A stretch of DNA of 64,000 nucleotides from a virus. Its lineage: Duplodnaviria; Caudoviricetes. The notes beneath the pieces were generated by a model. That model was given only the letters and a program-made list of their open reading frames with translations, made no database searches and was not told the origin of the DNA. Within the stretch, counting starts at the first letter, position 1. Every line of letters begins with the position of its first letter. The translations under genes and the position numbers were made by a program. The stretch is taken from IMG/VR virus record IMGVR_UViG_3300009370_000001; one strand, given 5' to 3'. Shown here one piece after another: positions 24,756-60,850 of the stretch.

Positions 24756-26302
24756 TGGGAATTAAAAGATATACAGCGAATGCCGATACTACGATTGTTA
24801 ACGCATTTAAGCCTAGCTTAGAAATTCGAGGTACCGGCTCTAATATGGGCGAAGCTGATGTTATGGAGATTTTCTCTATTTATGGGCGCCAATCAGTCTC
24901 ATCTTCGAATTCAACAGGCTCACAAGAACTTTCACGAATTTTGGTTAAATTCCCGATGGATGGAATTACAACTGATCGTAGTAACGGTGTTGTACCAGCT
25001 AGCGGAAGTGTAAGTTTCTATTTGAGATTGTTTAATGCCAAGACATCTAAGACAGTCCCACGCGAATTTACTTTGGTTGCGCGCCCAGTTTCAGGTACAT
25101 CGTGGCAGGAAGGCATTGGCCTTGATTTAGAAGGCTACAAAGATGAGGTTAAAGGCAACACCGGCGCCAACTGGATTTCTTCTTCAAAGGGCAAGCCTTG
25201 GGGGCTAGTCGGTGGTGATTATTATACTGGCTCTGGAGACACTTATACACAAAAATTTGGCACCGGGTTAGGAGATTTAGAAATTGATATTACTCAATTA
25301 GTAGAGCAGTGGATCAACGGGGATTATGCCAACTATGGAGTGGGCGTCCACCTCACAGCTAGCCAAGAAGCTTATTTTTCTGGATCCACTGCCGGCGCCG
25401 TTGGAATGGCCAGCGGAAATGTTCTTGCGTTACCAGACGGTGCGACGGAATCTTATTATACTAAGAGATTTTTTGCGCGCGGCACACAATTTTTCTTTAA
25501 AAAGCCTGTAATTGAAGCACGTTGGAATTCTGCGCGCAAAGATGGCCGCGGCGACTTCATGTATAGTAGCTCTTTGGCTCCAGCCGCAGATAACCTTAAT
25601 ACACTTTATTTGTATAACTATGTCCGCGGACAACTAACCGATATACCTTCAGTAAGCACTGGCGCGATTTACGTAAAGCTTTATTCAGGCTCAGCGGCCC
25701 CTACAGGAAGCAGTCTACTTCTCCACGATTCAAAATATAATGTAACAGGCGGACATGTCACTACCGGCATTTATTCGGCTTCGTTATGTTTGACCGCTGG
25801 AGCAAGTCCCCTCAAGAATGTTTTTGATGTGTGGCACGATGATGGTGTGGTTGAATTTTTTAGTGGCTCGATTAAACCAAAATTATTATTAGCTAACCAA
25901 ACAGTAGAAACTCCTGTTTATTTTATGAAGATAACAAATCTACAAGACAAATATAGAGAAAACCAATCAGCCCGCATGCGTTTGTTTGTGAGAAATAAAT
26001 TCTGGAGCCCCACTATTTATACTAAAGCAACGCAAGGCGTCGAAAGTTCTACGATTCAAAGCGCTTCTTACGAAGTTTATAGAATCTTAGATGGCTTTAC
26101 CGCTATTCCCTACGGTACTGGCAGCGATCTTCACACAATGTTATCGTATGACGTTTCCGGCAATTATTTTGATTTTGATATGAGTTTGCTAGAGCCAGGA
26201 TATGCTTATGGGTTTAAATTTTCATTTTACGACCCTGCACTAAGCACTTGGCTTGAACAGCCATATGTGTTTAAATTTAGAGTAGAGGATTATGAGTATT
26301 AA
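24755..26302 (+). CDS. Baseplate/tail structural protein
   Basis: Coupled to the gp6-like gene; beta-rich Ser/Gly/Thr composition; C-terminal LEPGYAY Ig/FN3-like motif. Confidence 0.55.
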   Translation: MGIKRYTANADTTIVNAFKPSLEIRGTGSNMGEADVMEIFSIYGRQSVSSSNSTGSQELSRILVKFPMDGITTDRSNGVVPASGSVSFYLRLFNAKTSKTVPREFTLVARPVSGTSWQEGIGLDLEGYKDEVKGNTGANWISSSKGKPWGLVGGDYYTGSGDTYTQKFGTGLGDLEIDITQLVEQWINGDYANYGVGVHLTASQEAYFSGSTAGAVGMASGNVLALPDGATESYYTKRFFARGTQFFFKKPVIEARWNSARKDGRGDFMYSSSLAPAADNLNTLYLYNYVRGQLTDIPSVSTGAIYVKLYSGSAAPTGSSLLLHDSKYNVTGGHVTTGIYSASLCLTAGASPLKNVFDVWHDDGVVEFFSGSIKPKLLLANQTVETPVYFMKITNLQDKYRENQSARMRLFVRNKFWSPTIYTKATQGVESSTIQSASYEVYRILDGFTAIPYGTGSDLHTMLSYDVSGNYFDFDMSLLEPGYAYGFKFSFYDPALSTWLEQPYVFKFRVEDYEY

Positions 26303-32300: not shown

Positions 32301-35300
32301 CATTACGATTTTGAGCTTGATTATGGCATAACTGATAACAGTGGCTCTTATGCCAATAAGTCGGTTATCATCACGCGCTTCGGAGCCCCCGGCTCTCGCG
32401 AGACCATGGCAAGAGGATACCAAGACTTCAAGTCTTCCGAATTCTCAGCATACAATGCCACCCCTTATAGAAACTTAAGCGTTTTAAATGCAGGACAATC
32501 AAATGAAATAGACGCCCAAACTAAAGTGGGGGGTTTTGGCTATATTGTAAACGATCTTCATAACAGGCCTTTTGGTTTAAACCAACACTTAACACGCCAC
32601 ACCGCACGCTTTGGACGTGACGATATGGCAGTAACAGGCACAACTTTCGCTACAGACGGTCCAGGCGCCTCCTACAATCAATTGCCCGGATTTCACAAGG
32701 TACATCGAAACGTCAAGAGAAGACTTGAAACCATAGGAGACGGTTCACAGGTAACGGCTAGTGTATACGATAACTGGTATGTTAGACATCAAATCCCACG
32801 ATCAGATATGCAATATACATGGATTACCGCATCTTTGGTAAGCAACAATGATCATTTTGGTTACTTGCCTGCCAGTTACGAAGTAAGCACTTCGGCAGGA
32901 TACACGGAACCTTATAATTTTGTGAGCGCCAGCGATTTTGGAATCTACCAATACACCGGTTTCGGTGGTGGACTCTGGCGATTAGGCGCCACTAAGAAGA
33001 TGGTTCAAAATTACTATACCATCGGTGTTGATGCTGATTTTTTACCCTTAGACTTTGCTGGGATGAATACTATTATATATGACCACTTTTCTGCAAGTTC
33101 TAATGTGCTCGGGTTGCGCTCACCGGAGAGTGTTTACGACTATAATCTCTATGACCCACCCCAGACTAGGTTTTATTTCAACACTACTGTGATCACAAAC
33201 GCGGGATTGATTAATCCAGGCATCCCGGGCTGGCTATGGGGCGCTCCGATTCCCAAGGGCGCATTCGACGCGCGCGCATTTAACCTGTTGAACCTTCACC
33301 GTAATGGCCCTTACGGATGGCCAATCTTTAAGCAGATTGATTATAACAATCCTCTCACTCGTTATGAACGCCGCAATAATCAGATTTCAATCTTAATGGC
33401 CGATTCTGGCGCTTATGGTACCGATTTCAAAACTTTCGACTTAAGTCCAGTTTCAATGCGCGCACACCCTGGCAAGATCAACTTTGATAATAATTCTCAA
33501 GATATGACTATTGTGGCTAGTCATAACAACGCGAGAATCTTTTTTAAGGAAGCTGAACTTAACGATCTTGTGAATATTAACTATTCTGATATTGTAACTC
33601 CCTTTGAGCAAATGCTTGACGTCACGACTATGGGAGACAGGTATAGCACCAATTGGATTATGTATAGTCAACAGTTATACCCATCAGAGAGAAATGAGTT
33701 TGAAAGCTATATCACTAAGAGAACTGGATATAACAATAAATTCTGGCGTTCAACACAAGCGCAGCGTATCGATCAAGCTCAAGGTGACGGTGTTCCTCCG
33801 TTGCGAGGCGGAACCCTTATCCCTAATTCGTGGGGATGCCCGTGGCTCGCTCCCCTTCCGGATCAGCGCGCCGCAGCAGGCATGTATGGTGGCAACTATA
33901 TTCAACTTACACAATCATCATGGCCATTAGATCCTGTTAAGGATTTTCTCACGCGTCCTCAAGCTACTCGGCACCCACGCTTAGGTGCCGGCTCGCCGGC
34001 TTCCTACAGAGAGGGCGGTATTAAGTTTAGAAACTCAGGCTCCGGCGAGCTTCAGAATCAATATATTATGCCGGCATTTCGGCCCTCTTATTTAGCATAT
34101 GTGGTTGGTGTTGGAGACTTTGGCTCGCCCGGTGCGCTATATTCTCGTAAACAAACACTAGGCTCTTACAAATCCGTTGTAAGTCCCTATGGCATTGTGC
34201 TGCCTAGCACGGGCGCCCTATCTTCTGCACTAGATCCTCGCGAACAAATTGAGACTTTTGCAGGAGAGGCAGTTTGGGATTGTCCCACTTATGCCGGCAT
34301 TAACATTCAAACTGGAAGCACCTTTACTTTCCAATCTCAAAGTTCCGATCCTTGGTTTAGCGATTACGAGACATTCCAGTACGATTTGAAACTAGCAGCG
34401 AAAGACTATTCTATTGTACCGGAATTCCGCATTAGCGAGCATATTGCGGATTTTAAGAAATATGGATTATTCGGTGCACATAATAGTGATATTTTCGAAA
34501 TTCCCGGTACCGGCATTAATAGTGCAAAGAGCAGCAGCTTCTACCGCGATTATTCTAATTCTGAATTTATGAAGGGCTTTTTAAATATTAAAGAAGATTC
34601 CGGTATTTTACCACGCGAGATAGAAATCGAATGTGAAGCAGCCATTAGATTTAATCCTTATAAAGGATTTTACCCCGTTCAGCGCTCATTAGATCTTGTA
34701 TCCCAATGGTCTAGTTCCTATGCAGACGGGATCACTGTAACCGTTGATGGAGATGGCACAACCTCGATGGGCCCAACAATTGGTTCCAGTAGTTTCGGAC
34801 AGAAGTTGCTTACCGATATGGGGCTCTATATTAGACCTATGATCGCGCCTCTCTTTGCGCCCGGTATTCTCTACAATTCTATTAAGTCTGGAATGGCGGT
34901 AGATTATCCTGTTGTCACAGACGATACAAAGATATTGCGCTGGCCGTTTTTCTCTGCGTCTATCGACACCTCCGGGGTCGCCGACACGATTAAGGGACCA
35001 GAGAAGCGAGATACTTGGGCTTTGACAATCAACCCAAATACCTTAAAAGTTAGCGCTAACGATACTAACGGATATGATGGAAAGTCTTTCTTTGATAAGA
35101 GACTTCCATTTGAAACCATGATCAAGCCTGAAGGTCAGATAGATGGGATGCAATTCATTGATATGGAATCAAATATTTCTTGTTCAGCTTTGACAACTGC
35201 TTCATTTGCTAGTCCTGCTGTCGATGATAATTATACTTTAATGGCTAGCAATTATTTTGCCGAGATTGGGAACTTTTTCCTTAAAGATTCTCACTATACT

Positions 35301-37475
35301 AAATTAGAATCAGATATTATTGCTGATAAGCTTAAATTTGAGAGCGGGAGCGTGTATGCAGCGCGCATTAAACTTAAGAGATCCTATATCGGCGCACGTA
35401 CATATGAAAATGAAATCGATTCCGGCGGGTTTACCTTTGCTGCTAATGGAACCCAAGGCCGATGGCGCCTCTTTGGCGGCGCCGGCCAAGAGATTGATGA
35501 TCTACCATATCCTTCCGGTGCTTATTTTCCTGTGCCTCAAGATCCAACTCGACAAGACGGCTTTAGAGAGAGTTTCACCCTTTACAGTCGACCAACTGCC
35601 TTTGGCCCGCCAATAGCCGCTTTGCGCAAGACAGGATCAAATGCGCATGTTCCCAATGATACCACGGTTGCGCAACTCGAAACCGCGATTAGCGAACAAA
35701 CGGGTAATTACCCTCACGATTCTATTAATGGGTTTAACTGGGCGTTTACTCCCCCTTACTATGATGGAGAATCATGGGCAGATGTTATTTTCCGACCTGA
35801 TTCCACTAAAGAATATAGTGTCCAAGATATCTTAGCCGATTCTAAAGTACGCTACTGGCGCCATGACGCCGGAGGTCCCCATGGCGCGGATTCGTTAGGC
35901 TTCGTGGGAAACCTTTCCGGAGCTTATATTGGTTTGTCCCGCGGTATTTATGATGGAGAAAATATTAACCGTAATGCGATGCAAATATCTGCTAGTATTA
36001 ATTTGTTTGGATTTGAACAAGTGCCATTTACCGAAAGAGATGCTTTCGGGAACGTGGCAACTACCCGTGACACCACGACAGGAACTCGATGGGTTCTCCA
36101 ACCTAAATTTGAAACCCCGCACTTAAACTTTAATGATGCTTATAACCAAGCACAAGTACCTATTTATGGTTCCGCTTCTGTGCCAATTGGGATTTGGCAC
36201 CAATTTGGCAAAATCCCCACAAATCCAGAGGTAGGAATTTTCTTAGAGATTGACGATATACCAGAACAATGGCAAAAATATCACTATGATATGTTTTATT
36301 ATGACAGCATCTATAATGATAATAATGCGGCCTCTTTTGTGGCGGGCAAAACACCATTTAGATCATTGACTGATGTTTTTGGATTCAAGTCCAATAGTAA
36401 ATCTAAACGTCTAGGAGAATTGGCCGATTCGCAAACACTTAGAGAGGCTATTGTGGCTATCCCATATTATACGGAACAAACCCCTGGTGATTATAGTTTG
36501 ACTACCGAGAAGACCGCCCGAACCCAGTATACTAAAAAATTCATTAGTATTCCCAAGGAAAGAATACAAGCCGCAGCCGAAGAGCAAGTGGGTTCTCTAG
36601 AAGGAGATTCTTTGGACACTGCGGGGTCTTCGATTAGAAAGCTTTTACAGAAGATGGATCGCTACGTCCTTCCTCCGCAATTTGATTTTAAATCTAATAA
36701 AAACATTGATCCTATTGCTATGTATATTATAGAATTTGAATATAAACTAGACAAAGACGATTTGTCCTATATTTGGCAAAATATGGCACCGAGAGATTAT
36801 AAGAAGCTTTCATTCCAGAAATCATCTGTAGCCCACGAATTGATGGACACAGAATTATTATCGGGGCATAATATTCTTGAGAGCGAAAATTTACGCTGGA
36901 TGGTGTTTAAGGTTAAACAAAAATCGCAAGCCTTTTATGATGATTCTGTGGTCGCACAAATCGGACAGACAACTAGAGACGCCTTTATTCAGCAACGCCG
37001 AAGAACCGAGCAAGGCTATAATCTAAATTACAACTGGCCTTATGACTATGTATCTTTTGTTGAGATGGTTAAAGTAAACGCCAAGGTGCTTTATGGCGGC
37101 CGCAGCACCGGTGTTCAAGGAGAACGAGTGCCTGCTGGTCAAAACGAACGTGTTCCTGTCTTAGAAACGCCAGCGCGCGAAGGGTCGCGAACTCTTCCGA
37201 GAGCGGCAGCAATAAATGAACAAGTAGCGGAAAGAGTACGAGCCCTCCCCCGGAGAGCACGACGCCGCGCCGCCCGCGGAGCCAGAGGCCGCCAAGCGAC
37301 TCTTCCGCTTGCCGATCAACAAACACGAGCAACTGCTCGTCGCCAGGGGCGCCGGCGTAACAACACTAATACCACACGCCGCGCAACTAATCCGACTCGC
37401 ACGCGAAGAACTCGCCGCGGCAGAGGCGGTGGCGGTAATCGCGGCGGAGGTGGCCGCGGCGGCGGAGGTTATTAA
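26292..37475 (+). CDS. Giant baseplate/tail protein (3727 aa) with two LamG/concanavalin-A-like domains and an Arg/Gly-rich C-terminus
   Basis: LamG-like motifs SIEFWLK...WTHVALV...LYING...MDEFRFW (about 26880-27440) and WNHVAVTWD...FFVNG...MDEVSIW (about 30960-31590); located in the baseplate operon. Confidence 0.7.
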   Translation: MSIKKLFGSVEDGRNYLSDTDQKEAFKDVESERNLEQLKEKQSNFVPQVDYSDPRFFARFGSAYYYYKGAMERITDYYPYDGSDAEINGFYNKLLDVEKYIFNNLYPRTNGYVELGEATTTSLSKLSGGYATPTTKEYITLKGGPNAIDSAGSLVKASNNPYSDKFQYSNVYDTSIYTTAGLPSDYGVGTRQSNLQCNFDTGVSIEFWLKKPTFGTCPETVFDLWTSGSQSGSVDYGRITVELTGASGVSPFLLTVQSGSAVSIEPGMTAAGIFQQSIGSGITAASLDTWTHVALVMYNTGSDFASKLYINGGLNDTYVTGSTTINQLKQKDTFARIGALLTAPSGAAATADSAVADYDGINKLSASMDEFRFWKEKRSGEDIGRYWFSQVRGGTNTDISNTTLGVYYKFNEGITETSSVDSNVLDYAGRITNGVWTGYGTNSRSTGSAMIESSASAQEYKDPIIYSSHSSVSNLKSELLATGSYHDAQNNSMFRNYAPSWIIEEAEQLGNNNLDVVSHIVGTYFDRVHLLSQQVPKLRGINYTSASSEPVPFAQHLPQSLGLYTPEIFIDANVMERFLNRNNDMLFENDLDETKNLIYLNLYNNLANIFKSKGTERSLRNVLRCFNIDEQIVKINTYAKNTTFPLSNNYEQVIEKVSYANFDKKENRTAVIYQRADSTNPNSRGYIPTGSKPGSEGGTEYANYEMQYGCTIEGQIMFPHWSVDYSDNQRDYTTVSLFGGITPYTSSADGLTGADTSANYPDYTNFQVQAIKTGPNSKDVYFKLTSSAPAYGVPEQFPTLTSSVFSNVYDNTTWNLSVRVKPKLDGPITTVSGASVTQYDVIFEGINIDLGTIENSFTVGGVVSAATGSASDFLTRPKRLYVGAQRTNLTGPVVHKSDVLVGSLRYWAKALNTGSLSQHAHDIDNYGISGSYQSVAAIDTANKSADVLNLNTLALNWAFNQLSSSNSTGVFVVPDISSGSTSLATDYGPMGTITGYQHNGYGYDFPNSSTDAIEKRLTNTFKFISPERATSADAIQILSEDDKVFGITETVPNYVYTVEKSMYRAVSEEMLDFFAGVVDFNNVIGAPVNRYRGRYKSLEKLREIFFRKVTKTSQVEKFVEYYKWFDDAIGHIMAQMVPASSDFVADVYNTVESHVLERNKYQTKYPSLETKQNHPEAQMEGVGGLGITYKNYSSPVPASPRNTNQNIQYWLKKAKRSEPEITSGNPTIDTQRENMRQIINTAPRASTKPGELMTSGIAGSGTKYFQDFYPQRNYQKLYKLKSYDADASIHGGVNFSKDQNIQYTYNSLYPFGPVSTEENRFIPLNVLVGLTSDLVSIQDFEDDRELRRKVKRVFKVQSARRWYQDEGYSDVKSSMAFPFNIMSSSLNSGYNKEVQTKVGANIEITNLHNDTYGQAMGTPMQGPFTEKYVGGHQSRHITYNSGATDTYLTRPEAWKLLLGQCADQGSGAIGMASPTYPYPDIGAPPSSAYGRIDFTSNPITDNSVTISDGDTSLTFTIPFMNTYATHHADQVRSYIVIGGDNSSSYGNPTLAEPQYFDIDAGTYSCWISGSIPMTGNGNLIIMGVNHATFNFSLIDDGSTPPGSSPASKLRLTQQWLNGASAGSTVNSYWTTDNKEVPLGQWNHVAVTWDATTTGSTEPVFFVNGVQVDSSRDGSAVPTAAGSTLRLALKARSGLPSGNPKVTCLIGGYNASNAISGAMDEVSIWQLSMSADQISELYATGSVTDLMQHSVYTSNNSNLRAWYRMGDDPNDAIDGTGVYDLGTNSIVDQTGRYNGTPGEDMTVDFATNVITSSATGDNIAWTRGGNTNATAVNLTTAINAQSFNIVASNPEGDAETITVSNTKYGVPTSTKKEARGSLGNVSLSRVGSRISVEGMQGGSDPQIINFNAPRATYYREELAKRPVNIRNIQMTTGSTIIGNYQNNYEVVSTVGAFANPRDFIENQPTLPSVITTKTNLNRGGANRFTGRTGQAVLNYLTLDRASGSHYDFELDYGITDNSGSYANKSVIITRFGAPGSRETMARGYQDFKSSEFSAYNATPYRNLSVLNAGQSNEIDAQTKVGGFGYIVNDLHNRPFGLNQHLTRHTARFGRDDMAVTGTTFATDGPGASYNQLPGFHKVHRNVKRRLETIGDGSQVTASVYDNWYVRHQIPRSDMQYTWITASLVSNNDHFGYLPASYEVSTSAGYTEPYNFVSASDFGIYQYTGFGGGLWRLGATKKMVQNYYTIGVDADFLPLDFAGMNTIIYDHFSASSNVLGLRSPESVYDYNLYDPPQTRFYFNTTVITNAGLINPGIPGWLWGAPIPKGAFDARAFNLLNLHRNGPYGWPIFKQIDYNNPLTRYERRNNQISILMADSGAYGTDFKTFDLSPVSMRAHPGKINFDNNSQDMTIVASHNNARIFFKEAELNDLVNINYSDIVTPFEQMLDVTTMGDRYSTNWIMYSQQLYPSERNEFESYITKRTGYNNKFWRSTQAQRIDQAQGDGVPPLRGGTLIPNSWGCPWLAPLPDQRAAAGMYGGNYIQLTQSSWPLDPVKDFLTRPQATRHPRLGAGSPASYREGGIKFRNSGSGELQNQYIMPAFRPSYLAYVVGVGDFGSPGALYSRKQTLGSYKSVVSPYGIVLPSTGALSSALDPREQIETFAGEAVWDCPTYAGINIQTGSTFTFQSQSSDPWFSDYETFQYDLKLAAKDYSIVPEFRISEHIADFKKYGLFGAHNSDIFEIPGTGINSAKSSSFYRDYSNSEFMKGFLNIKEDSGILPREIEIECEAAIRFNPYKGFYPVQRSLDLVSQWSSSYADGITVTVDGDGTTSMGPTIGSSSFGQKLLTDMGLYIRPMIAPLFAPGILYNSIKSGMAVDYPVVTDDTKILRWPFFSASIDTSGVADTIKGPEKRDTWALTINPNTLKVSANDTNGYDGKSFFDKRLPFETMIKPEGQIDGMQFIDMESNISCSALTTASFASPAVDDNYTLMASNYFAEIGNFFLKDSHYTKLESDIIADKLKFESGSVYAARIKLKRSYIGARTYENEIDSGGFTFAANGTQGRWRLFGGAGQEIDDLPYPSGAYFPVPQDPTRQDGFRESFTLYSRPTAFGPPIAALRKTGSNAHVPNDTTVAQLETAISEQTGNYPHDSINGFNWAFTPPYYDGESWADVIFRPDSTKEYSVQDILADSKVRYWRHDAGGPHGADSLGFVGNLSGAYIGLSRGIYDGENINRNAMQISASINLFGFEQVPFTERDAFGNVATTRDTTTGTRWVLQPKFETPHLNFNDAYNQAQVPIYGSASVPIGIWHQFGKIPTNPEVGIFLEIDDIPEQWQKYHYDMFYYDSIYNDNNAASFVAGKTPFRSLTDVFGFKSNSKSKRLGELADSQTLREAIVAIPYYTEQTPGDYSLTTEKTARTQYTKKFISIPKERIQAAAEEQVGSLEGDSLDTAGSSIRKLLQKMDRYVLPPQFDFKSNKNIDPIAMYIIEFEYKLDKDDLSYIWQNMAPRDYKKLSFQKSSVAHELMDTELLSGHNILESENLRWMVFKVKQKSQAFYDDSVVAQIGQTTRDAFIQQRRRTEQGYNLNYNWPYDYVSFVEMVKVNAKVLYGGRSTGVQGERVPAGQNERVPVLETPAREGSRTLPRAAAINEQVAERVRALPRRARRRAARGARGRQATLPLADQQTRATARRQGRRRNNTNTTRRATNPTRTRRTRRGRGGGGNRGGGGRGGGGY

Positions 37476-50231: not shown

Positions 50232-51659
50232 ATGTCCTTCAAGAAGTTTGGACAAAATGATATCCTTATAAATACAATGATGGCAGAGCCTCATTGTGAA
50301 TTCTTCATTTATGATGGGGATATCTTTTATAACAATACACCGAGCAAAGCCGGCACTTCTACTGCAGGCGGCGGCGGTTCTGCTGTGTCTGAAGTTCGTA
50401 TGGTATCCCCCGGCAGTATTAGCTTGTATGAGTACAATATTGATCGACCAGATACAAGCGGGGATGATAAGATTATCGGTGAGGCCGGCCCTCACTCTAG
50501 AGGAGGCGGCTCTTATACCCAGGCTGTCGCCGATCTTGGACCAGAACCCCAGACATTTGTTCAATATACTGGACGCATCTATCCTTGGATTTCCAAAGAC
50601 AGCGCCGGCGCAAGCTGGAAAACAGTTAATGCTACCGGTTATGCTACCGAATATATGTATGGTGATGTTCTAACCGGAACCTATCCTCTCTCCGCCTCAA
50701 TAGTGCGCAAATATATAGTCGGCGGTTCTACAGGTCCCACTTTTGGCGCGGTGGGGGAGACGTCTGGCTCCGGCGCCGACGAGGTATCCATCGAGGGCAA
50801 GTTAACAGCATTAGGAGATGGTCCTTCTGGTTCTCTCGATAGGCACTTCTATAGTTTAAAAGGTCGTTTAAATTTTTATGGCATTCGAAGTGCGCACTAT
50901 AAAGTTTCTGCTTCTCTAGGATCGGACTCGTGGAACAAAAATGAACAGACCTTAAATTTAATCGCCATTCCATCAATAGCCTTTGGCTCTCAAATCAAGC
51001 CCGGAACGGTCTCTTTAAAATGGTATTATGACGGCGGCCTGATTGGAGAACTTCAAGACCGTCGACAAAACGGAGAATTAATTCAAGTTTCCGCTTCCAC
51101 AGGGTATACAGCTAATAATAATAAAGTTGCAGGAGTTATTATGTACGATGAGGGATACATTGTCTTAACTGGCTCGTGGGCTTTAAATGCGGCTGCTATC
51201 CCATTACAGACGGCCGTGAATTCCTCTCCCACATGGCTTTATTTTGGTGTCGGTGCGAATGATGGACTTAATCAAAGTAACACTGGGACTAATTTTGCAA
51301 AAGCTTCTTTTAGCTTATCTTTCAAGGGGCAGACGAAAACACAAGTAATGACACTGTTTACGCATGCTAAGCGTGGAGAAGCCAATTTCTCTAATAACCC
51401 CACATATTTAAAGTATGGACAAGACAAACTACAATATACCTCTTCACAAGTTTATGAAGAAAATCCTGATCAATTCCTTGCCAACACCGTCAGTTCGAGT
51501 TATAATGATTATGAGGCTCCGTTTAAACGGAGTGTGTATATTTCCAAAGTGGCAGTCTATGATGAGAATAAGAATATGATCGGCGTTGCAACGTTAGCAA
51601 ATCCAGTTCTCAAAGAAGAAGATCGAGACTACTCCTTTAAATTAAAATTGGATATTTAA
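50232..51659 (+). CDS. Tail/baseplate structural protein sharing a C-terminal domain with 49148
   Basis: C-terminal ANFSNNPTY...YISKVAVYDENKNMIGVATLANPVLK...FKLKLDI. Confidence 0.55.
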   Translation: MSFKKFGQNDILINTMMAEPHCEFFIYDGDIFYNNTPSKAGTSTAGGGGSAVSEVRMVSPGSISLYEYNIDRPDTSGDDKIIGEAGPHSRGGGSYTQAVADLGPEPQTFVQYTGRIYPWISKDSAGASWKTVNATGYATEYMYGDVLTGTYPLSASIVRKYIVGGSTGPTFGAVGETSGSGADEVSIEGKLTALGDGPSGSLDRHFYSLKGRLNFYGIRSAHYKVSASLGSDSWNKNEQTLNLIAIPSIAFGSQIKPGTVSLKWYYDGGLIGELQDRRQNGELIQVSASTGYTANNNKVAGVIMYDEGYIVLTGSWALNAAAIPLQTAVNSSPTWLYFGVGANDGLNQSNTGTNFAKASFSLSFKGQTKTQVMTLFTHAKRGEANFSNNPTYLKYGQDKLQYTSSQVYEENPDQFLANTVSSSYNDYEAPFKRSVYISKVAVYDENKNMIGVATLANPVLKEEDRDYSFKLKLDI

Positions 51660-52234
51660 TGATACTTGGTGTGGATATTTCCACCAGCATCACAGGTTTT
51701 GCGATTGTTACCGATAACGTGCTGGTATATTATGACTCTATTGATTTGCGAAAATACAAAGGCTTTTTCGCTAAGACAATCGCTATAAAAGAAAAGATAC
51801 TGGACATTTTCGAAATGTACCAGCTTAATAACGATGACAAGATGACTGGAGATTCTGAGTTTCCTATTCAGCACATCTATATTGAGCAATCTCTCCATAT
51901 GTTTATGGGAGGCCGCTCATCAGCTAAAACACTTTCAACACTCACGCGCTTTAATGGCGTCGTAGCGTGGCTTCTCTTCGAACTATTTGAAATCGAACCA
52001 CAATTTATCGGCGCTTCGTCTGCTCGCAAGCAAGTCGGCATTAGAGTTCCGAGAGGTGAGAAAGCAAAACAAGTTGTTTTGAAATATTTACTTGACAACG
52101 AACCCACTTTTAAGATACAATATACAAGTAAGGGCAATCCCAAACCTGAATCTTATGATCGGGCGGATGCAATTATAATCGCGAGAGCGGGAGATATAAT
52201 TGAGCGAGAAAAAGAAACACAAGATTCTGTGTGA
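51659..52234 (+). CDS. RuvC-like Holliday junction resolvase
   Basis: MILGVDISTSITG, IYIEQ and DRADAIIIA RNase-H-fold acidic residues. Confidence 0.8.
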   Translation: MILGVDISTSITGFAIVTDNVLVYYDSIDLRKYKGFFAKTIAIKEKILDIFEMYQLNNDDKMTGDSEFPIQHIYIEQSLHMFMGGRSSAKTLSTLTRFNGVVAWLLFELFEIEPQFIGASSARKQVGIRVPRGEKAKQVVLKYLLDNEPTFKIQYTSKGNPKPESYDRADAIIIARAGDIIEREKETQDSV

Positions 52235-53135
52235 TGTATTAGGATATTCACATACAAATGGTTCCGAAACACTTTTCAAATGCCCTGCGTGCGATCACCA
52301 CAAGCTTAAACTCTCTGTTAACATCCGCAAGAATGTTTTTAAGTGTTGGGTATGTGATTATCGTGGTCGTAATATTCGCCGGCTGGTTCGTCGTTTTGGA
52401 ACGTTTGTTCAACTACAGCGATGGGAAGAACTCACGGGTCGCCACGATCTCGATAGATTTGCTGAGCTATTTGATGATAGCGTTCGTGTGGACCCTCAGC
52501 CCACTTTGGATCTTCCAGAAGAATTTGTAAGTCTCGCCAGCAATGTGCCGGCAACTGGTGTATACGCTTATAAATACTTGTACTCACGCGGTATAACAAA
52601 GGCCGAGATTCTTAAGTGGAAGATAGGTTATTGTTTCAGCGGCGAGTATCGCAACCGCATTATCATCCCGTCCTTTAACGATGACGGCAATGTCAGTTAT
52701 TTCATCGCGAGATCCTATAACGGAGATTCATACAAGTATAAGAATCCCAGAGCATCTAAAGACATTGTGTTCAATGAGCTATATATTGATTGGAACGATG
52801 ACTTGACAATCGTGGAAGGGGTGTTTGATGCCATTACTGCCGGAAACAGCGTACCTATTTTGGGGTCCACTCTGCGATCTGACTCCGATCTCATCCGCAA
52901 AATCGTGTACAACGATACACCAGTCTTCGTTGCACTCGACCCCGATGCGCGAGAAAAAGAGAACAGGATTATTGAGACGCTTCTTAAATACGATGTCGAA
53001 CTTTACAAGATTGACGTGAGTGGTTACGAGGACGTGGGCTCCATGCCGAAAGAGGTTTTCCGAGAGCGAAAACAAAAAGCAGAATTCATAGATAGAGACG
53101 ACTATTTACTCATGAATTTACTCTCGGCAGTATAA
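52200..53135 (+). CDS. DNA primase (zinc-binding domain plus Toprim)
   Basis: CPACDHH...FKCWVC zinc ribbon, RIIIP, Toprim IVEGVFDA and VALDPDA; TTG start. Confidence 0.88.
   Translation: MSEKKKHKILCDVLGYSHTNGSETLFKCPACDHHKLKLSVNIRKNVFKCWVCDYRGRNIRRLVRRFGTFVQLQRWEELTGRHDLDRFAELFDDSVRVDPQPTLDLPEEFVSLASNVPATGVYAYKYLYSRGITKAEILKWKIGYCFSGEYRNRIIIPSFNDDGNVSYFIARSYNGDSYKYKNPRASKDIVFNELYIDWNDDLTIVEGVFDAITAGNSVPILGSTLRSDSDLIRKIVYNDTPVFVALDPDAREKENRIIETLLKYDVELYKIDVSGYEDVGSMPKEVFRERKQKAEFIDRDDYLLMNLLSAV
53085..53135 (+). repeat. Direct repeat copy 1 (functional primase 3' end)
   Basis: 51 bp encoding FIDRDDYLLMNLLSAV*; 44/51 identical to 54514-54564. Confidence 0.9.
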
Positions 53136-53140
53136 ACCGC

Positions 53141-53169
53141 TTGACATTTACAGATAGATCGCTTATAAT
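53141..53169 (+). promoter_or_regulatory. Consensus sigma70 promoter
   Basis: TTGACA (53141-53146), 17-bp spacer, TATAAT (53164-53169). Confidence 0.9.
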
Positions 53170-53175
53170 AAGAAT

Positions 53176-53445
53176 ATGAAAGTAACAGCACTAAGGTGTA
53201 ACAATTGCAACACCCTAATTTATTCTCGTACTCGTCACGATATGAGAGGCTGCCGGTGTTGGAAGAACGATTACGATAACATCGGAATTGCAATTGACGG
53301 CGGGTTCGACTATTGCAAGGTTCACGCCAGTCCAAAATCAGACTATGATTTTATTGCCGAGTATGATCTTGGAGAGGTTGACAGGAAAACGCTTTATCAA
53401 GATTGGAACACTCGAACCGATAATTATGGGATGATTACAGAATGA
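53176..53445 (+). CDS. Small Cys/His-rich (putative Zn-binding) phage protein
   Basis: RCNNC...SRTRHDMRGCRC...IAIDGGFDY pattern. Confidence 0.7.
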   Translation: MKVTALRCNNCNTLIYSRTRHDMRGCRCWKNDYDNIGIAIDGGFDYCKVHASPKSDYDFIAEYDLGEVDRKTLYQDWNTRTDNYGMITE

Positions 53446-54020
53446 ACGAAGAAAACGACTTTAGACTTGTGAGAGCTTTCCCGCTCCTTTATGCAGATAG
53501 GGGCGGCTCTAAGCAATCAACGCTCATGTGTTGGGGCTTCTCGTGCGGCGATGGCTGGTTTGATCTTATCTGGGATCTCTCAGAGAAGCTTGAGCCGATC
53601 ATCAAGAAGTTTGTTGATGAAAATCCAAACCTTGAATGTTCGAATTGCGGCTGCAAGAAAGACAGACACTATGCTTGCAAGACCCGCAATCCCGGCAGGT
53701 GCCTATCGGTTCACGTCGATCCGGATTCAGATGAGGAGCCCCCTGGCAACTATTATGCTTGCTTCTGTGATAGTTATGTGTCAAGTCATCCAAGGGCTGT
53801 TCAGGTGAAAGAGAAGTTCGGATCGCTTAGGTTCTATATGACATCAGAAAACGACGAGATCCGCAGCCTAATCGGCGAAGCCGAAGCAAAATCGTGTGAA
53901 ACCTGCGAGGAATGCGGAGATCCCGGCAAAGAAAGAGACACAAGTTGGATCCGAACGCTCTGCGACGGATGCTATGAGAATTGGGAGCAGATCCGAGCAG
54001 CGAGATGGAGCAAAGAATGA
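53442..54020 (+). CDS. Cys-rich hypothetical phage protein
   Basis: FSCGDGWFDLI...VQVKEKFGSLRFY...TCEECG...TLCDGC; ATGA coupling. Confidence 0.7.
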   Translation: MNEENDFRLVRAFPLLYADRGGSKQSTLMCWGFSCGDGWFDLIWDLSEKLEPIIKKFVDENPNLECSNCGCKKDRHYACKTRNPGRCLSVHVDPDSDEEPPGNYYACFCDSYVSSHPRAVQVKEKFGSLRFYMTSENDEIRSLIGEAEAKSCETCEECGDPGKERDTSWIRTLCDGCYENWEQIRAARWSKE

Positions 54021-54262
54021 AACCAACACTTGAGTCTGGTGATATCATAATCCGTCGCGCAAGTAATGGTTGGATTGTATTTGTAGAATCAGAGCACGAG
54101 CCAGATCACTTTATCACTCTCCTTTATGAAATCCCCGACACTGAATTCGGGGAACAAGAGTGCTTTATGAACCTTTTAGGAGCAGAGTTCCCAGAGCAAT
54201 TTCAGTCAAAACATCGTGGCGGTATTCAAATGGAGTTGCGAACCAAGGGACGAGAGCATTAA
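54017..54262 (+). CDS. Hypothetical protein (81 aa)
   Basis: ATG 54017 overlaps the upstream stop (ATGA) and has a TGGAG Shine-Dalgarno. Confidence 0.6.
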   Translation: MKPTLESGDIIIRRASNGWIVFVESEHEPDHFITLLYEIPDTEFGEQECFMNLLGAEFPEQFQSKHRGGIQMELRTKGREH

Positions 54263-54289
54263 GAAAAATATTGAAGTGATTGAAGAATA

Positions 54290-54511
54290 ATGAGCGAGAA
54301 CACCAAAAAAGAAGATTGGCAGAGACTAGAAATCACAGATGTGATCGACAATCCTGACGGAACTTCAACATTAGTTTTTGAACTCGAAGACGAGTTCAGA
54401 GAGTGGTTCAAGAAATCATTCGGATTAAAAAGGTGGAGCGACAAAAGGTTCGAGAAGGTGTTTCTTGAAGCAATTAGAGGCTATATAGAGAGGGAGACCG
54501 GAAAAGATTAA
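54290..54511 (+). CDS. Hypothetical protein (73 aa)
   Basis: Intact ORF and last gene of the cassette. Confidence 0.6.
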   Translation: MSENTKKEDWQRLEITDVIDNPDGTSTLVFELEDEFREWFKKSFGLKRWSDKRFEKVFLEAIRGYIERETGKD

Positions 54512-54513
54512 TC

Positions 54514-54564
54514 TTTATCGATAGAGAAGACTATTTATTGATGAATTTACTCTCGGCAGTGTAG
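54514..54564 (+). repeat. Direct repeat copy 2 (orphan primase 3'-end relic)
   Basis: Encodes FIDREDYLLMNLLSAV* with no start codon for the full segment; nearly all differences from copy 1 are synonymous. Confidence 0.9.
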
Positions 54565-54574
54565 GAGAGCCCCG

Positions 54575-55633
54575 ATGAAAGTAACCAAATCAAAACTAAA
54601 GCAGATTATTAATGAAGAACTGGGACAAGAACTCCAAGAACTTTATATCCCTTTTATTGGCGGGAAACTTCCCGAGAAAGAATATGCAATCCGTAGGAAG
54701 CAGTTGGACGCCATTGGCGATATGGCAAATGACCTAAGCGCGGAAGAGGAAGAACAATTCTTAAGGTACGCGAGCCGGTTGGTAGCACCCAAGGAGGAAG
54801 GGGAAGGCTTTGTCCTGCTGAGCGACAGGATAGAAGCTGGTCTTCTAGGACAATTGTTTCAACAACTGAGGCGCCTTCTGTATGACCGTCACCCTAAACA
54901 TAAAGCACAGAGTCTTATGAACCGTTTTGATCAAAACGCAGATCGGTTGTCCAAAGAGTTGGGCGGACTAGCCCAAGAAATAGCCGATCAGAAAGCTGAT
55001 GCTGCGGCAAGAGAAAAGGCCGCCCGGGAAGAAAGGTATGAGAGGGAACAACGAGAAGAAGAAGAAGAAAAAGCAAGAGCGCGAAATAGGAGAGACGCAG
55101 AAGAAGCCCGTTCGGCGCAGGAGTACCTGAGTATGTCCGATGCAGAACGTACTCGACTGCGCAAGCGGTCAGGATCGTCGTCCCACCGCGTTAACCCCGG
55201 CTTTGCAGGCTCAGGAAACATGGGCTATGGAGAATCACTCGATAGGAGAATCCCAATGAAAGTAACCAAAGCACAACTTCAAGAGATCATCCTTGAAGAG
55301 CTTACAATCGCTTTAGACGAGCTTGGCGCTGGCAAAGGCGCCGGCATGAGCCTGCGCGCTGCCCAACTCGGTGGAACCGGACACGGCAAGCGCGATGAAG
55401 ACGAAGAATACGTCGATCCCGAAGTCGATCCTTATGAGAAAGCGCTGGAAGCTCCGTTGGCCGAAGAAGAGGATGACGAGTGGATTCAAGACGCAGAGAA
55501 AGATATTAAAAAGCGCGGCACCGAGGGTGTCTGCACTGGGGATAAATTTGGTGGTCCCACATGCAAGCCTGGAACGAAACGATACAACTTAGCAAAGACG
55601 TTCCGGAAGATGGCGAAAGACCGCAAAAAATAA
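54575..55633 (+). CDS. Leader-motif protein (352 aa) with an internal second leader and a C-terminal Cys-containing module
   Basis: Starts MKVTKSKLKQIINEEL after AGGAGA; second MKVTKAQLQEIILEEL in frame at 55256. Confidence 0.75.
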   Translation: MKVTKSKLKQIINEELGQELQELYIPFIGGKLPEKEYAIRRKQLDAIGDMANDLSAEEEEQFLRYASRLVAPKEEGEGFVLLSDRIEAGLLGQLFQQLRRLLYDRHPKHKAQSLMNRFDQNADRLSKELGGLAQEIADQKADAAAREKAAREERYEREQREEEEEKARARNRRDAEEARSAQEYLSMSDAERTRLRKRSGSSSHRVNPGFAGSGNMGYGESLDRRIPMKVTKAQLQEIILEELTIALDELGAGKGAGMSLRAAQLGGTGHGKRDEDEEYVDPEVDPYEKALEAPLAEEEDDEWIQDAEKDIKKRGTEGVCTGDKFGGPTCKPGTKRYNLAKTFRKMAKDRKK

Positions 55634-55637
55634 AAGC

Positions 55638-55666
55638 TTGACTCTTGCTTGACAATGAGTTATACT
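55638..55666 (+). promoter_or_regulatory. Sigma70-like promoter upstream of the Mre11-Rad50 fusion
   Basis: TTGACT (55638-55643), 17-bp spacer, TATACT (55661-55666); GGAGG Shine-Dalgarno at 55683-55687. Confidence 0.75.
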
Positions 55667-55691
55667 ATAAGAGTATCTATGCGGAGGGTAC

Positions 55692-58600
55692 GTGAAGTTT
55701 GCACATATAAGTGATACTCATATCAAAAATCTGAAGTATCATTATGAATATCGAGTCATTTTTGAGCAGTTGTATGAAACGCTGCGGGAACAAAAAGTCG
55801 ATTACATTATACACTGTGGGGATATAGCCCACACCAAGACCCAGATCTCACCAGAGTTTGTTGAGATGTGTTCTGATTTTTTTCGCAGTCTCGCTGAGAT
55901 TGCACCAACCTATATCATTCTAGGAAACCATGACGGCAACCTAAAGAACAGCAGTCGTCAAGACGCACTGACACCGATTGTCGACGCGCTCAATCTGCCG
56001 ACACTGCACTTGCTTAAAGATTCAGGCGAGACTCATTTGAACGACGATTTCTGTTTGAATGTCTTGTCTGTTTTTGATCGAGACAACTGGATGAAGCCCA
56101 CCAATACTGACAAGATCAATATTGCACTTTATCATGGCTCAATCTCTAATTGTAAAACTGATACCAATTGGACGATGAGTTTTGGTGAAGATGATATATC
56201 TATCTTTGACGATTTTGATTTTTCTATGCTTGGTGATATTCACCGTCGCCAATTCCTAGATCACGATGGACGCGTTTGGTATGCTGGCTCAACTGTTCAG
56301 CAGAACCATGGCGAGACCAACGACAAAGGTATTCTCATTTGGGATATCAAATCTAAAGACGAATGGGACATTGAGCCGATTGTGTTTAAAAACCCTAAGC
56401 CGTTCTTTACAATCCCGCTCACACTCAAGGGGCGGATGCCTCGCAATCTCCAAGTACCCACTGGCGCACGCCTGCGATTGGTTAGTAACAATAACCTTCC
56501 GCTTAACACGATGCGCCGAGCAATGGACATTGCGAAGCATCGCTTTAAGCCCGAGAGCATCTCGTTTCTCAACAGAGCAGCAGGCGAGCGCGGTAATGTA
56601 GAAGATCTAACTGACGGTATTAAGACAGAAAACCTGCGAGACATTAAAGTCCAAGAAGAACTGATTGACGAGTTCCTTTCAGATTACCAGACCGATGCCA
56701 CAACCCTAGAGCGCGTGTTTGAGCTTAACAGCAAGTACAACAAGATTATCGAGGACCGAGAAGAGATCTCTAGAAACGTAAACTGGAGAATCAAGTCGTT
56801 TAAATGGGACAATCTGTTTAATTACGGAAAGGATAACTCCATCGACTTTGAAAACCTTAACGGCATCATTGGCGTTTTTGGAAAGAACTTCAGCGGCAAA
56901 TCTAGCATCATTGATGCGGCCCTGTATACATTGTTCAACACCACCTCAAAGAACGAGCGCAAAAACCTCAACGTTATTAATCAACATCAAGAATCTTGCG
57001 AAGGCGTTTTAGAGATCGAGATCGGACACAAAGTCTACAACATTAAGCGCACCTCTGAAAAATATACGAAACGCTTGAAAGGTGTTGAGACCTTAGAAGC
57101 CAAAACAGATTTGAACTTCGAAGTCTATGACCCTGTCACAGACGAGACAACATCCTTAAACGGCACCACACGCAATCAGACGGACGCAAATATTCGAAAG
57201 CACTTCGGGTCCATGGATGATTTTATGGTGTCTTCTCTGGCAAGCCAGCACGGTGCATTGGGATTCATTGATGAGGGTTCGACACGTCGAAAGGAAATCA
57301 TCGCCAAGTTCCTCGATTTGGAGCTGTTTGACCAAAAGTTTAAGATGGCCAAAGACGACTCTGTTGAGGCCAAGGCTCTCCTGCGCAAGTATGAGGATCG
57401 GGATTACAACACTGAGGTGCAGGCATTAGAAACCAGCTTGGAAGACTTGACTGTACAAGCGGAAACTAATCGCACAACTTGCGAGGATTATCGTAAAGAA
57501 CTTAAACTTCTGAACGAAGGAGCGAGACGCTTAGACGAGAAGATCAATTCTATTCCTGGCAAGCTTATTGACATCACAAAAGTCATGACAGAGCAAAAAG
57601 ATAAGCAAGTGTTGTCGAAGTTGTTGGAGGAGAAGATAACAAGCCAAACAGCACTGGCACTTGTCAAGCAGCAGAAAGTGGCAATATCAGAGAGCTTATT
57701 AGAGCTTATCGATCATGCCACCCTCACAGCCGACAAAGCAGAAATTGATACTTTAGATCATAGTATTATGAATCTTCGAGAAGAGATTGAAAAGATTGGC
57801 AAAAAGGAAAAGCTTTTGAAGAGTATCCCCTGCGGCGATTCTTATCCTTCGTGTCGATTTATCAAAGATGCCTATATTGACGTAGCTAACAAGCCAGGAA
57901 TTGAAGCAGACCTTCACGCGGCCGCTATGCGTTTAGAAACGTTGTCTCCTGACGACACAGCCGAAAAGCTTGAAGAGTATCGTTTAACGCAAGAACTGAT
58001 TGTAGAACTAAAGGCGGAAGTTGCCGCGCTGCAATTAGAATGCGAACGTAATAAGAACACAAAGGCCACAACTGATCAAGAATTGATCACTCTCACCACC
58101 AAGGTCGCTGAATATAAGCAAAACAAAAAGGTTATTGATGGACTTGAAAAAGTCATCAAAGAACGACAAGGTTACCAAACTAAGATCGAGACTAAAAAAG
58201 AAAAGATTGAAATCTGTGATAACGAGACATTAGAGATTGTACGACAGGTGGGTTCCTATGAAGAGAAGATTGAATCTCTCAAGGCTCAAAGTAAGGAGTA
58301 TCAAGACCTTCAGAATAGTTATGCGGCATACGATTTGCTTATGCAATGCATGCACCCTAACGGAATCGCTTACGATATTATCAAGAAAAAGATTCCAGTC
58401 ATTAACCAGGAGATTGCAAAAGTTCTCGCCAACATTGTTGAGTTCGAAGTGTTTTTTGAGACCAGCGGAAACAAGCTTGACATCTTTATTAAGCATCCTA
58501 AGCACGACGAACGGCCCATTGAAATGGCGTCAGGTGCAGAAAAGACAATGGCCGCGATGGCAATTCGTTTGGCTCTTTTAAGTGTTTCTTCACTTCCAAA

Positions 58601-58799
58601 GTCGGACTTGTTTATCCTCGATGAGCCGGGCACCGCATTGGACGAAGAAAATATGGAGGGTTTTATTAGGATCTTGGAACTAATTAAGGTATATTTTAAG
58701 AACGTTCTCTTGATCTCGCATTTAGACTCTCTCAAAGATTGCGTCGACATGCAGATTGTAATAGAAAAGAAAAAAGGCTACGCAAAGGTAAACCAATAA
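55692..58799 (+). CDS. Fused Mre11/SbcD nuclease - Rad50/SbcC ATPase (gp47-gp46-like)
   Basis: Phosphoesterase motifs HISDTH, CGDIAH, GNHD, YHG and GDIH; Walker A GKNFSGKSS; coiled coil; signature ASGAEK; Walker B ILDEPGTALD; H-loop ISH; GTG start. Confidence 0.92.
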   Translation: MKFAHISDTHIKNLKYHYEYRVIFEQLYETLREQKVDYIIHCGDIAHTKTQISPEFVEMCSDFFRSLAEIAPTYIILGNHDGNLKNSSRQDALTPIVDALNLPTLHLLKDSGETHLNDDFCLNVLSVFDRDNWMKPTNTDKINIALYHGSISNCKTDTNWTMSFGEDDISIFDDFDFSMLGDIHRRQFLDHDGRVWYAGSTVQQNHGETNDKGILIWDIKSKDEWDIEPIVFKNPKPFFTIPLTLKGRMPRNLQVPTGARLRLVSNNNLPLNTMRRAMDIAKHRFKPESISFLNRAAGERGNVEDLTDGIKTENLRDIKVQEELIDEFLSDYQTDATTLERVFELNSKYNKIIEDREEISRNVNWRIKSFKWDNLFNYGKDNSIDFENLNGIIGVFGKNFSGKSSIIDAALYTLFNTTSKNERKNLNVINQHQESCEGVLEIEIGHKVYNIKRTSEKYTKRLKGVETLEAKTDLNFEVYDPVTDETTSLNGTTRNQTDANIRKHFGSMDDFMVSSLASQHGALGFIDEGSTRRKEIIAKFLDLELFDQKFKMAKDDSVEAKALLRKYEDRDYNTEVQALETSLEDLTVQAETNRTTCEDYRKELKLLNEGARRLDEKINSIPGKLIDITKVMTEQKDKQVLSKLLEEKITSQTALALVKQQKVAISESLLELIDHATLTADKAEIDTLDHSIMNLREEIEKIGKKEKLLKSIPCGDSYPSCRFIKDAYIDVANKPGIEADLHAAAMRLETLSPDDTAEKLEEYRLTQELIVELKAEVAALQLECERNKNTKATTDQELITLTTKVAEYKQNKKVIDGLEKVIKERQGYQTKIETKKEKIEICDNETLEIVRQVGSYEEKIESLKAQSKEYQDLQNSYAAYDLLMQCMHPNGIAYDIIKKKIPVINQEIAKVLANIVEFEVFFETSGNKLDIFIKHPKHDERPIEMASGAEKTMAAMAIRLALLSVSSLPKSDLFILDEPGTALDEENMEGFIRILELIKVYFKNVLLISHLDSLKDCVDMQIVIEKKKGYAKVNQ

Positions 58800-59722: not shown

Positions 59723-60850
59723 ATGAACAACCCTGACGATTTTGATTTTGCCGAGACAGCAACGGAAACCAATCCGCCTGCTCTCGAAACCCCTAAAACT
59801 AGTGAGTTCGACGACTTTGATTTCGTCGATCACTATGGAGACGATGAAGAAGTAACCCACGAGAATTTGCTTCCGGAGAACACTGTTCCCGCATCACTGA
59901 ACTGTGCCATTGTTGGCGTAGGTGGAGGTGGGGGCAAGATGGCCAAAGCCTTTCTCGATCTTGGCTACAACAGGACTCTGCTTGTTAATACCACTGCTAA
60001 AGATATCCCTGACGCTGTGGGTGATGAGCATGTGGTTTTGATTCCCGATGCCGATGGCATTGGAAAAGATGTGAATTTAGGAAAAGCTGTGTTTGATGCA
60101 AACAGTACAGTCGTAGAAGATGCCCTCCGCACAAAATTAGGCAAAGTTGACTGGCTGTTCGTTTGCGCTGGAGGTGGCGGTGGAACTGGTTCTGCCGTCG
60201 CTTCTCTACACAGCGTCTTTGAGCGCTACCTTAAGTCGGTACAAGCCGAAGGCGAGGTAGTATACATTACGTCGTGGCCGACCGCACAAGAATGCTTGAA
60301 TCCAACAATTAGCAAGAATGCGTTAGCTTTACTTAATGATGTTTCCCAGCACACTCACATCGTTTTGGACAACGAACGCCAAGTTAAATTGTTGCGCGGA
60401 AAGGTGGGGATGCTGAATCTGTTTCCTTCTGCCAACACGGCGTTTGCAAAGTTAATGACTCAAATTCTCAAACTCTCCAGCGATAAATCGCCGATTCAAT
60501 CGTTTGATACCAAAGATCTAGAAAGATGTTTGCGAACCCCACAAAGAATGTTTATTGGATCGACAATGGTAAAAGATCCCGCTACGCCAAACCTAGGCGC
60601 TACGATTCTTCAGAATTGTATGAAGCGTTCTCCGTGTCCCGCCCCCAAAGGTAAGCCCCAAACCGGCGCATTATTATTGATTGCGTCGTCTGAGATGGCA
60701 AACGATCCAGAGATTAGCAAACACATGGATGCAGCGATTGGATATGTTGGCGGCAGAACAGACACACTTTTTTCAGGTGTTTATATTAATGATAATGTAC
60801 CTGGGCTCGTTGCCATACTATGTATGAATGGGCTACCCAAAGGAAAATAA
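59723..60850 (+). CDS. FtsZ/tubulin-family GTPase
   Basis: IVGVGGGGGK, LVNT, DGIGKD, signature AGGGGGTGS, LDNE, and T7-loop-like SFDTKDL; CGGAG Shine-Dalgarno. Confidence 0.9.
   Translation: MNNPDDFDFAETATETNPPALETPKTSEFDDFDFVDHYGDDEEVTHENLLPENTVPASLNCAIVGVGGGGGKMAKAFLDLGYNRTLLVNTTAKDIPDAVGDEHVVLIPDADGIGKDVNLGKAVFDANSTVVEDALRTKLGKVDWLFVCAGGGGGTGSAVASLHSVFERYLKSVQAEGEVVYITSWPTAQECLNPTISKNALALLNDVSQHTHIVLDNERQVKLLRGKVGMLNLFPSANTAFAKLMTQILKLSSDKSPIQSFDTKDLERCLRTPQRMFIGSTMVKDPATPNLGATILQNCMKRSPCPAPKGKPQTGALLLIASSEMANDPEISKHMDAAIGYVGGRTDTLFSGVYINDNVPGLVAILCMNGLPKGK

Follow-up and report, generated by a model that had tools for sequence, protein, structure and literature searches.

How does the 3′ end of a DNA primase gene come to be present twice in a phage genome, once at the end of its gene and once behind four small genes? 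The locus in question lies in a 64,000 nt stretch of DNA (the window; all positions refer to it unless stated otherwise), which corresponds to positions 52192-116191 of the 203,204 bp record IMGVR_UViG_3300009370_000001, the 203-kb genome of an uncultured marine phage with direct terminal repeats of 119 nt. The gene (52200-53135, plus strand, TTG start codon) encodes a DnaG-type DNA primase of 311 amino acids (PHROG 47; e-value: 1e-43; weak match to DnaG_N). Its working last 16 codons and TAA stop codon (copy 1; 53085-53135) recur on the same strand as copy 2 (54514-54564), and between the two lie a consensus promoter and the genes c1 to c4, here termed the cassette. By comparison with related phages we show that the cassette was inserted at the boundary between the primase gene and its ancestral downstream neighbor, a gene with an MKVTK leader. 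The same comparison shows that the ancestral primase end is copy 2, now stranded and untranslated, and that copy 1 completes the primase today.

The two copies are identical at 44 of 51 bases. The seven base differences (copy 1/copy 2: TTC/TTT, ATA/ATC, GAC/GAA, CTC/TTG with two bases changed, GTA/GTG and TAA/TAG) are silent or fall in the stop codon in six cases, while the remaining one (GAC/GAA) exchanges aspartate for glutamate; the translated ends read FIDRDDYLLMNLLSAV and FIDREDYLLMNLLSAV, respectively, each followed by the stop. This recount agrees with an earlier description of the stretch, hereafter the initial annotation, in the repeat coordinates, the identity and the single aspartate to glutamate exchange. 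The longest unbroken identity between the copies is 20 nt, and when the whole 203-kb genome is compared with itself they form the sole such pair at the primase locus (e-value: 1.7e-9). Copy 2 begins 2 nt past the stop codon of c4 and is untranslated, since an in-frame stop codon at 54475 is not followed by a start codon. Its sequence is undecayed and identical among all carriers.

Relatives of the primase were collected from IMG/VR (107 sequences; 49-94% amino acid identity), and the loci of 80 of these were fetched. Neither a second primase end nor any of the cassette genes was found within 6 kb at any of the 80 loci. In L001, L004 and L045, whose primases share 94%, 87% and 90% amino acid identity, respectively, with that of the window, the primase stop codon is directly followed by the GGAGA...ATG of the MKVTK gene, matching the junction behind copy 2, where the ribosome-binding site and a 352 amino acid MKVTK-leader open reading frame (ORF) occupy 54565-55633 on the plus strand, with the ATG at 54575. 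Empty sites of exactly this kind, with the primase running directly into the gene at 54575, were what the initial annotation had proposed to look for. The two copies also compare differently with the relatives: copy 2 is one base off the working primase end of L004 and four off those of L001-L003, while the TTC and CTC codons of copy 1 occur in none of the 80 relatives. Copy 2 thus matches working ends better than copy 1 does, and its near identity to the L004 end upholds the earlier view that both copies diverged as coding sequence. Furthermore, the silent pattern of the differences is best read as that of two functional primase alleles, a reading which the comparison supports.

The left limit of copy 2 is equally sharp. 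L001 and L081, a contig which bears the remnant, share 98.6% nucleotide identity over 363 nt, and this alignment starts at the exact first base of the 51-nt end. A longer primase remnant in front of copy 2 was considered and rejected, as the 84 nt preceding copy 2 aligned locally to primase 3′ regions no better than shuffled sequences did (p 0.3-0.75). From the junction in the relatives, the base matches, the start of the L001/L081 alignment and the lack of upstream homology, copy 2 can therefore be taken as the ancestral end, cut sharply at position -51.

The left part of the cassette is occupied by a predicted sigma-70-type promoter of consensus sequence (TTGACA-17-TATAAT; 53141-53169, plus strand; 12/12 in the promoter scan), which begins five bases past the primase stop codon and is presumed to be active. 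It is the single perfect match to TTGACA-N16-18-TATAAT in the 64-kb window, where about 0.07 would be expected by chance, and homologues of all four cassette proteins occur in other phage contigs, in line with the perfect promoter and four small genes that had been reported between the copies. The end of the -10 box and the ATG of c1 are separated by 6 nt (53164-53178), a layout which is the same in contigs L081 and L101; a transcript from the cassette promoter would therefore be leaderless, and c1 would be translated from this predicted leaderless message. No terminator-like site is predicted in 53136-54575, so that transcription of the cassette probably continues into the MKVTK gene. In L081 and L101 the perfect -35 box, 17-nt spacing and -10 box are kept, with a spacer and -35 flanks unrelated to those of the window, and the homology of the window to both contigs sets in exactly at the -10 box (53164). 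The -35 region of the window matches a repeated early-promoter motif of its own genome at 14 of 14 bases, a match that is weak alone (e-value: about 0.1). This motif of about 80 nt is present in approximately nine copies outside the window, near the genome ends (genome positions 1241-1326, 4028-4111 and 195609-203020), and comprises two or three TTGACA boxes and a GCTATATT -10 region.

The four genes are encoded on the plus strand, and c1, c2 and c3 are joined by ATGA stop/start overlaps. The first (c1; 53176-53445) codes for an 89 amino acid zinc-ribbon protein of the DUF7695 family (Pfam PF24749; e-value: 2.5e-10), with 94% amino acid identity to its counterparts in L081 and L101. The product of c2 (53442-54020) is a Cys-rich protein of 192 amino acids and belongs to a large uncharacterized marine-phage family with at least 1,728 homologues in marine viral data (e-value ≤1e-3), whose genes usually lie among other small genes and not at the boundaries of conserved genes. 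It has no Pfam match, and a function search in Pfam, PHROGs, NCBIfam and ESM Atlas features returned nothing usable. An AlphaFold2 model of c2 is confident (predicted local distance difference test score, pLDDT: 94.6), and no match to a solved structure was found with Foldseek against the Protein Data Bank (PDB; best e-value: 0.69) or with VIA-align (wide search; best Z: 3.9). The invariant residues of the family include four C-terminal Cys residues and a QVKEKFGxLRFY motif, and are mostly Cys, Lys, Glu and aromatic residues, with no obvious catalytic His/Asp set. One JGI record labels a c2 homologue as DksA; the label was unconfirmed by Pfam and set aside, and is probably due to the C-terminal four-Cys motif.

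The start of c3 (54017-54262; 81 amino acids) is that of the gene calls, and homologues were found in L081, L101, L103, L130 and L083, the L103 copy being fused to another domain. The exact 73 amino acid protein encoded by c4 (54290-54511) is present on 23 contigs. Its last 16 or so codons (54463-54511) have no counterpart in other c4 homologues: that of L130 shares 85% identity over amino acids 1-61 but differs at the C-terminus, and has c3 behind it. Among c1 to c4 no match to a nuclease (GIY-YIG, HNH), an integrase or recombinase, or a defence-related family was obtained in Pfam, PHROGs or NCBIfam. These are dispensable accessory genes.

The same genes are also found in another setting. In L101 the order is a 645 amino acid gene, a 67 amino acid gene, about 300 nt of non-coding sequence, the promoter, c1, c2, a c4-like gene and c3, while L130 carries c2, c4 and c3 in this order; relatives with the 645 amino acid gene have neither a primase nor an SbcCD gene within 10 kb. 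The cassette of the window shares 65-92% identity with L101 up to about position 53700 and 100% for the following 300 nt. This block (53700-54010) is 100% identical in the window, L081, L101, L094 and L097, which points to a recent, presumptive exchange between phages. Some 280 nt between the 67 amino acid gene and the cassette promoter (L081:316-598) show no evident gene and are themselves approximately 100% conserved among L081, L101 and L104-L106.

Contig L081 is 100% L101-like to the left of the identical block and 100% L094-like to its right. It may be an assembly chimera, because metagenome assemblies break at this block (it is where L094, L095 and L097 begin, and run X3 contigs stop at 53721-53740), and as such it was set aside as a second left context of the cassette. 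In run X5, a single unitig connects left-hand sequence of the L101 type with c2 and c3, at a depth equal to that of the unitig spanning c3, c4 and the remnant, which would fit a real molecule of the L081 type. It is firmly established that the window type and the L081/L094 type have one and the same joint between c4 and the remnant. The downstream flanks of the remnant are L004-like in the window and L001-like in L081 and L094, the switch lying in the last bases of the remnant. A single insertion event was thus followed by homologous exchange of the flanks. A scan of IMG/VR for the c4-remnant joint pattern returned the L081 contig only, while exact-pattern scans of JGI metagenome contigs for the copy 1 signature and for this joint gave no match, a negative of low weight since records close to the window genome may be missing there.

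A further insertion with a duplicated boundary was found in L103, which relative to L101 has gained two genes (192 and 82 amino acids) flanked by a duplicate of about 20 nt comprising stop codon, ribosome-binding site and ATG (L103:460-486 and 1444-1470). This gives a second example of a stranded gene end, and duplications of gene boundaries are a recurring feature of these phages.

The account we favor, and consider probable as a whole, is that recombination between related phages inserted the cassette, supplied copy 1 as the donor primase end and stranded the resident end as copy 2. A 1,378-nt segment (53136-54513), bearing four small, translationally coupled genes behind a consensus promoter of early type, was inserted at the boundary of the primase and MKVTK genes in the 203-kb phage lineage, most likely in one recombination between two related co-infecting phages. 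The left crossover would have been homologous and inside the primase 3′ region, making copy 1, which completes the primase reading frame, the donor allele. The right join, which lies 51 nt within the resident primase gene, would have been illegitimate and near the end of c4; it left the resident last 16 codons, stop codon and ribosome-binding site untranslated behind the cassette and still joined to the MKVTK gene. Thereafter the cassette would behave as a moron-like unit, its own promoter driving c1, predicted to be leaderless, and then c2 to c4, while later homologous exchanges moved the flanks around it.

Of the recombination claim in the initial annotation, the insertion and the stranded old end are sustained by the empty sites, but the donor-supplied primase end is only suggested, with no donor among the 80 relatives. 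The window primase gene shares 95-100% identity with that of L001 over 52589-53038 and about 87% over the last 95 nt. Because the substitutions unique to the window relative to L001-L004 cluster at 53081-53111 (6 of 33, where about one would be expected), a donor may be suggested to have supplied copy 1 with the cassette. Several observations weigh against this account. Neither a donor nor a cassette-free primase allele with the TTC/CTC signature of copy 1 was found among the 80 relatives. The divergent 3′ patch is short, and a second patch at 52535-52581 (11 substitutions in 47 nt which are absent from L001-L004) shows that the primase gene is mosaic anyway; the 3′ patch therefore need not be linked to the insertion. 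The final 16 codons of c4 (54463-54511) have no known source, so that the right joint may fall at any point of 54462-54513. The insert does not stand out by base composition (G+C fraction of 0.39-0.49, against 0.41-0.45 in the flanks), and what precedes the cassette in the L081 genome type may be chimeric, the X5 unitigs notwithstanding.

Other explanations of the repeat have to be weighed against this account. The primase end of a related strain might have been wrongly joined in during assembly, an alternative which the initial annotation had itself raised, and metagenome assemblies do break inside the cassette, where sequences are 100% identical near 53700-53740. At least six contigs of ENA, Logan and JGI origin (L089, L090, L091, L093, L096 and L098) nevertheless have exactly the same two-copy structure, and a 13.6-kb Logan contig of run X1 spans it with 0 differences; several of the supporting contigs may share one sampling campaign, and those of JGI are separate assemblies. 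With the same structure in assemblies from at least two data sources, a mis-assembly is contradicted and can be discounted almost entirely. The copies might instead have been identical at first, generated by a staggered-break target-site duplication or by Campbell-type integration, in a single crossover, of a small circle with homology to the primase end, a route proposed for PeSL mini-circles; gene conversion with other alleles would later have introduced the differences. The direct repeats flank the insert exactly, the small insertion of L103 has its own boundary duplicate, the left homology border falls at the -10 box and the flanks have been exchanged at the remnant between the window and L081, all of which would suit such an origin, and mini-circles and crossovers at the -10 box/ATG are documented in T4-type phages (PMC2839356). 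Seven differences in 51 nt, however, contrast with the 100% identity of parts of the cassette between genomes, and it is the untranslated copy 2 that resembles the working ends of relatives and the translated copy 1 that is odd, which is the opposite of drift after duplication. A circle carrying a primase end furthermore presupposes an earlier insertion at the same place, and an origin from identical copies is as such unlikely.

A selfish element of the homing type would account for the presence or absence of the cassette at one site among close relatives: a cassette nuclease would cut cassette-free primase ends, the silent changes of copy 1 would protect its own genome and the duplication would be a repair scar. 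The silent substitutions at 53081-53111 are indeed clustered beside the insertion, but a donor allele explains them equally. The c2 product, a widespread, zinc-binding-looking protein with a confident fold and no solved-structure match, might conceivably be a nuclease of unrecognized type. That none of the four proteins matches GIY-YIG, HNH or another nuclease family in the three databases searched, that the invariant residues of c2 include no obvious catalytic His/Asp set and that its family is not usually found at conserved-gene boundaries make a homing origin very improbable. We give just as little credence to the proposal that copy 2 has been retained as a functional RNA or DNA, such as a hairpin or a translation-coupling element for the MKVTK gene. 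A 12-pair A/U-rich hairpin is predicted to start at the first base of copy 2, and copy 2 is undecayed in every carrier; yet the fold is no better than that of shuffled sequence (z = -0.64), the arrangement is absent from L002, L003 and many relatives, and a recent event explains the lack of decay equally, the cassette blocks being 100% identical between genomes. RNA structure in the repeat was accordingly rejected (z-scores: -0.64, -0.26 and +0.37). It is also rather improbable that the cassette and its two primase-end arms constitute a portable, integrase-free, gene-end-carrying mobile cassette of large lytic phages, in which both arms, copy 1 with the primase sequence before it and copy 2 with the conserved start of the MKVTK gene, would pair with the single primase end of a related phage, a double crossover would introduce the cassette with the primase intact throughout and regenerate the duplication, and one of the zinc proteins might help spread by cutting empty sites.

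Loss of the cassette by recombination between the repeats had likewise been proposed, which would make it an excisable island. The contigs gave no support for this: all 14 with the exact window primase protein carry the cassette wherever they are long enough, and no deletion junction of the window genome is present in the assembled contigs of four runs. A cassette-skipping joint (53134 to 54571; run X5, depth about 4) was rejected as an excision product and attributed to a diverged empty-site relative. Excision is possible.

The insertion lies in an interval that is variable throughout the relatives. Behind the MKVTK-leader ORF, the conserved promoter of a fused SbcD-SbcC (Mre11-Rad50-like) gene (promoter: 55638-55666, plus strand; gene: 55692-58799) marks the right edge of the interval, and in L002 and L003 this promoter is located about 20 nt past the primase stop codon. 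In the 65 relatives where both genes are visible, primase and SbcCD lie between 13 and 5005 nt apart (median: 1182 nt), compared with 2556 nt in the window (53136-55691). The slot mostly contains one to four genes with an MK(I/V)TK...LKQII leader, plus others. Within this family of large uncultured marine phages, the primase-SbcD-SbcC interval acts as a hypervariable slot for accessory genes. The 352 amino acid ORF contains an internal repeat, ribosome-binding site included (54562-54621 and 55243-55302; 77% identity), with a second in-frame start codon at ATG 55256, while relatives have separate leader genes (86 and 112 amino acids in L001; 80, 81 and 126 amino acids in L045); it looks like a putative fusion of two MKVTK-leader genes. 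A second N-terminal leader is found outside the window, where five genes (genome positions 17810-21572) share the same 26-47-nt 5′ sequence encoding MKLLLENWR.

No match to 51600-56000 was obtained by blastn among 50,697 deposited phage genomes, and the nearest cultured relatives of the primase are those of Flavobacterium phage immuto (38% amino acid identity), Microcystis phage Mel-JY01 and SPO1-type phages. Elsewhere, the window encodes a 375 amino acid tubulin/FtsZ-like protein (59723-60850; Pfam Tubulin in the precomputed gene calls) with a weak NCBIfam FtsZ match (e-value: 2e-9, far under the family cut-off), as well as two very long ORFs (15853-22551, 2,232 amino acids; 26292-37475, 3,727 amino acids), the former without a match in PHROGs.

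The locus offers a clean, datable footprint of accessory-gene gain in large uncultured marine phages, documented by the occupied site, by several empty ones and by a different context in which the genes also occur. Genetic exchange occurs here at gene boundaries and inside promoters, and an essential gene can survive insertion into its own end since a replacement end accompanies the insert. The products of c1 to c4 are candidates for roles in host takeover or counter-defence. As a whole, the locus is a clear but fairly ordinary example of accessory-gene shuffling by large phages.

Among known systems, the hyperplastic regions of T4-type phages harbor ORFan cassettes flanked by PeSL (promoter-plus-stem-loop) motifs (Arbiol et al. 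2010, PMC2839356; Comeau et al. 2014, PMC4122927). The present cassette resembles these in being a promoter-led ORFan block that occupies a variable slot between conserved genes of replication and recombination, present or absent among close relatives and without an integrase, with direct repeats that could permit loss or circles and a crossover around the -10 box and ATG at a strong sigma-70-like promoter. It differs in that the flanking repeats are a duplicated primase coding 3′ end rather than promoter-plus-stem-loop motifs, in that no stem-loop terminator precedes the promoter (53071-53180 folds no better than shuffled sequences) and in that the right flank consists of primase remnant and ribosome-binding site without a promoter, so that the composite motif is not on both sides. 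The nearest cultured relatives of the primase, furthermore, are Flavobacterium and SPO1-type myoviruses and not T4.

Morons, described in lambdoid and other phages (Juhala et al. 2000; Hendrix), are extra transcription units with their own promoter, located between genes that are adjacent in relatives. The cassette likewise sits between genes adjacent in L001, L004 and L045 and has its own predicted promoter, but comprises four genes rather than one, has no predicted terminator and no distinct composition, and has a duplicated gene end at its borders. Some integrative elements, such as prophages e14 and 21 in icd and the islands in tRNA genes, enter a gene at its 3′ end and replace that end with one of their own; they share with the cassette the duplicated target 3′ end, the copy beside the gene body that keeps the gene intact and the silent nature of the differences. 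Here, however, no integrase or excisionase was detected, the phage genome is of lytic type and the repeat is only 86% identical. The free-standing homing endonuclease genes of T4-like phages, Seg and Mob, are also inserted between conserved genes, present or absent among relatives and accompanied by silent polymorphisms beside the insert, whereas the cassette includes no recognizable nuclease gene. No new kind of mobile element emerges from the locus; the event is of a known kind, the insertion of a cassette that is moron-like or PeSL-like, combining features of both systems while fitting the strict definition of neither.

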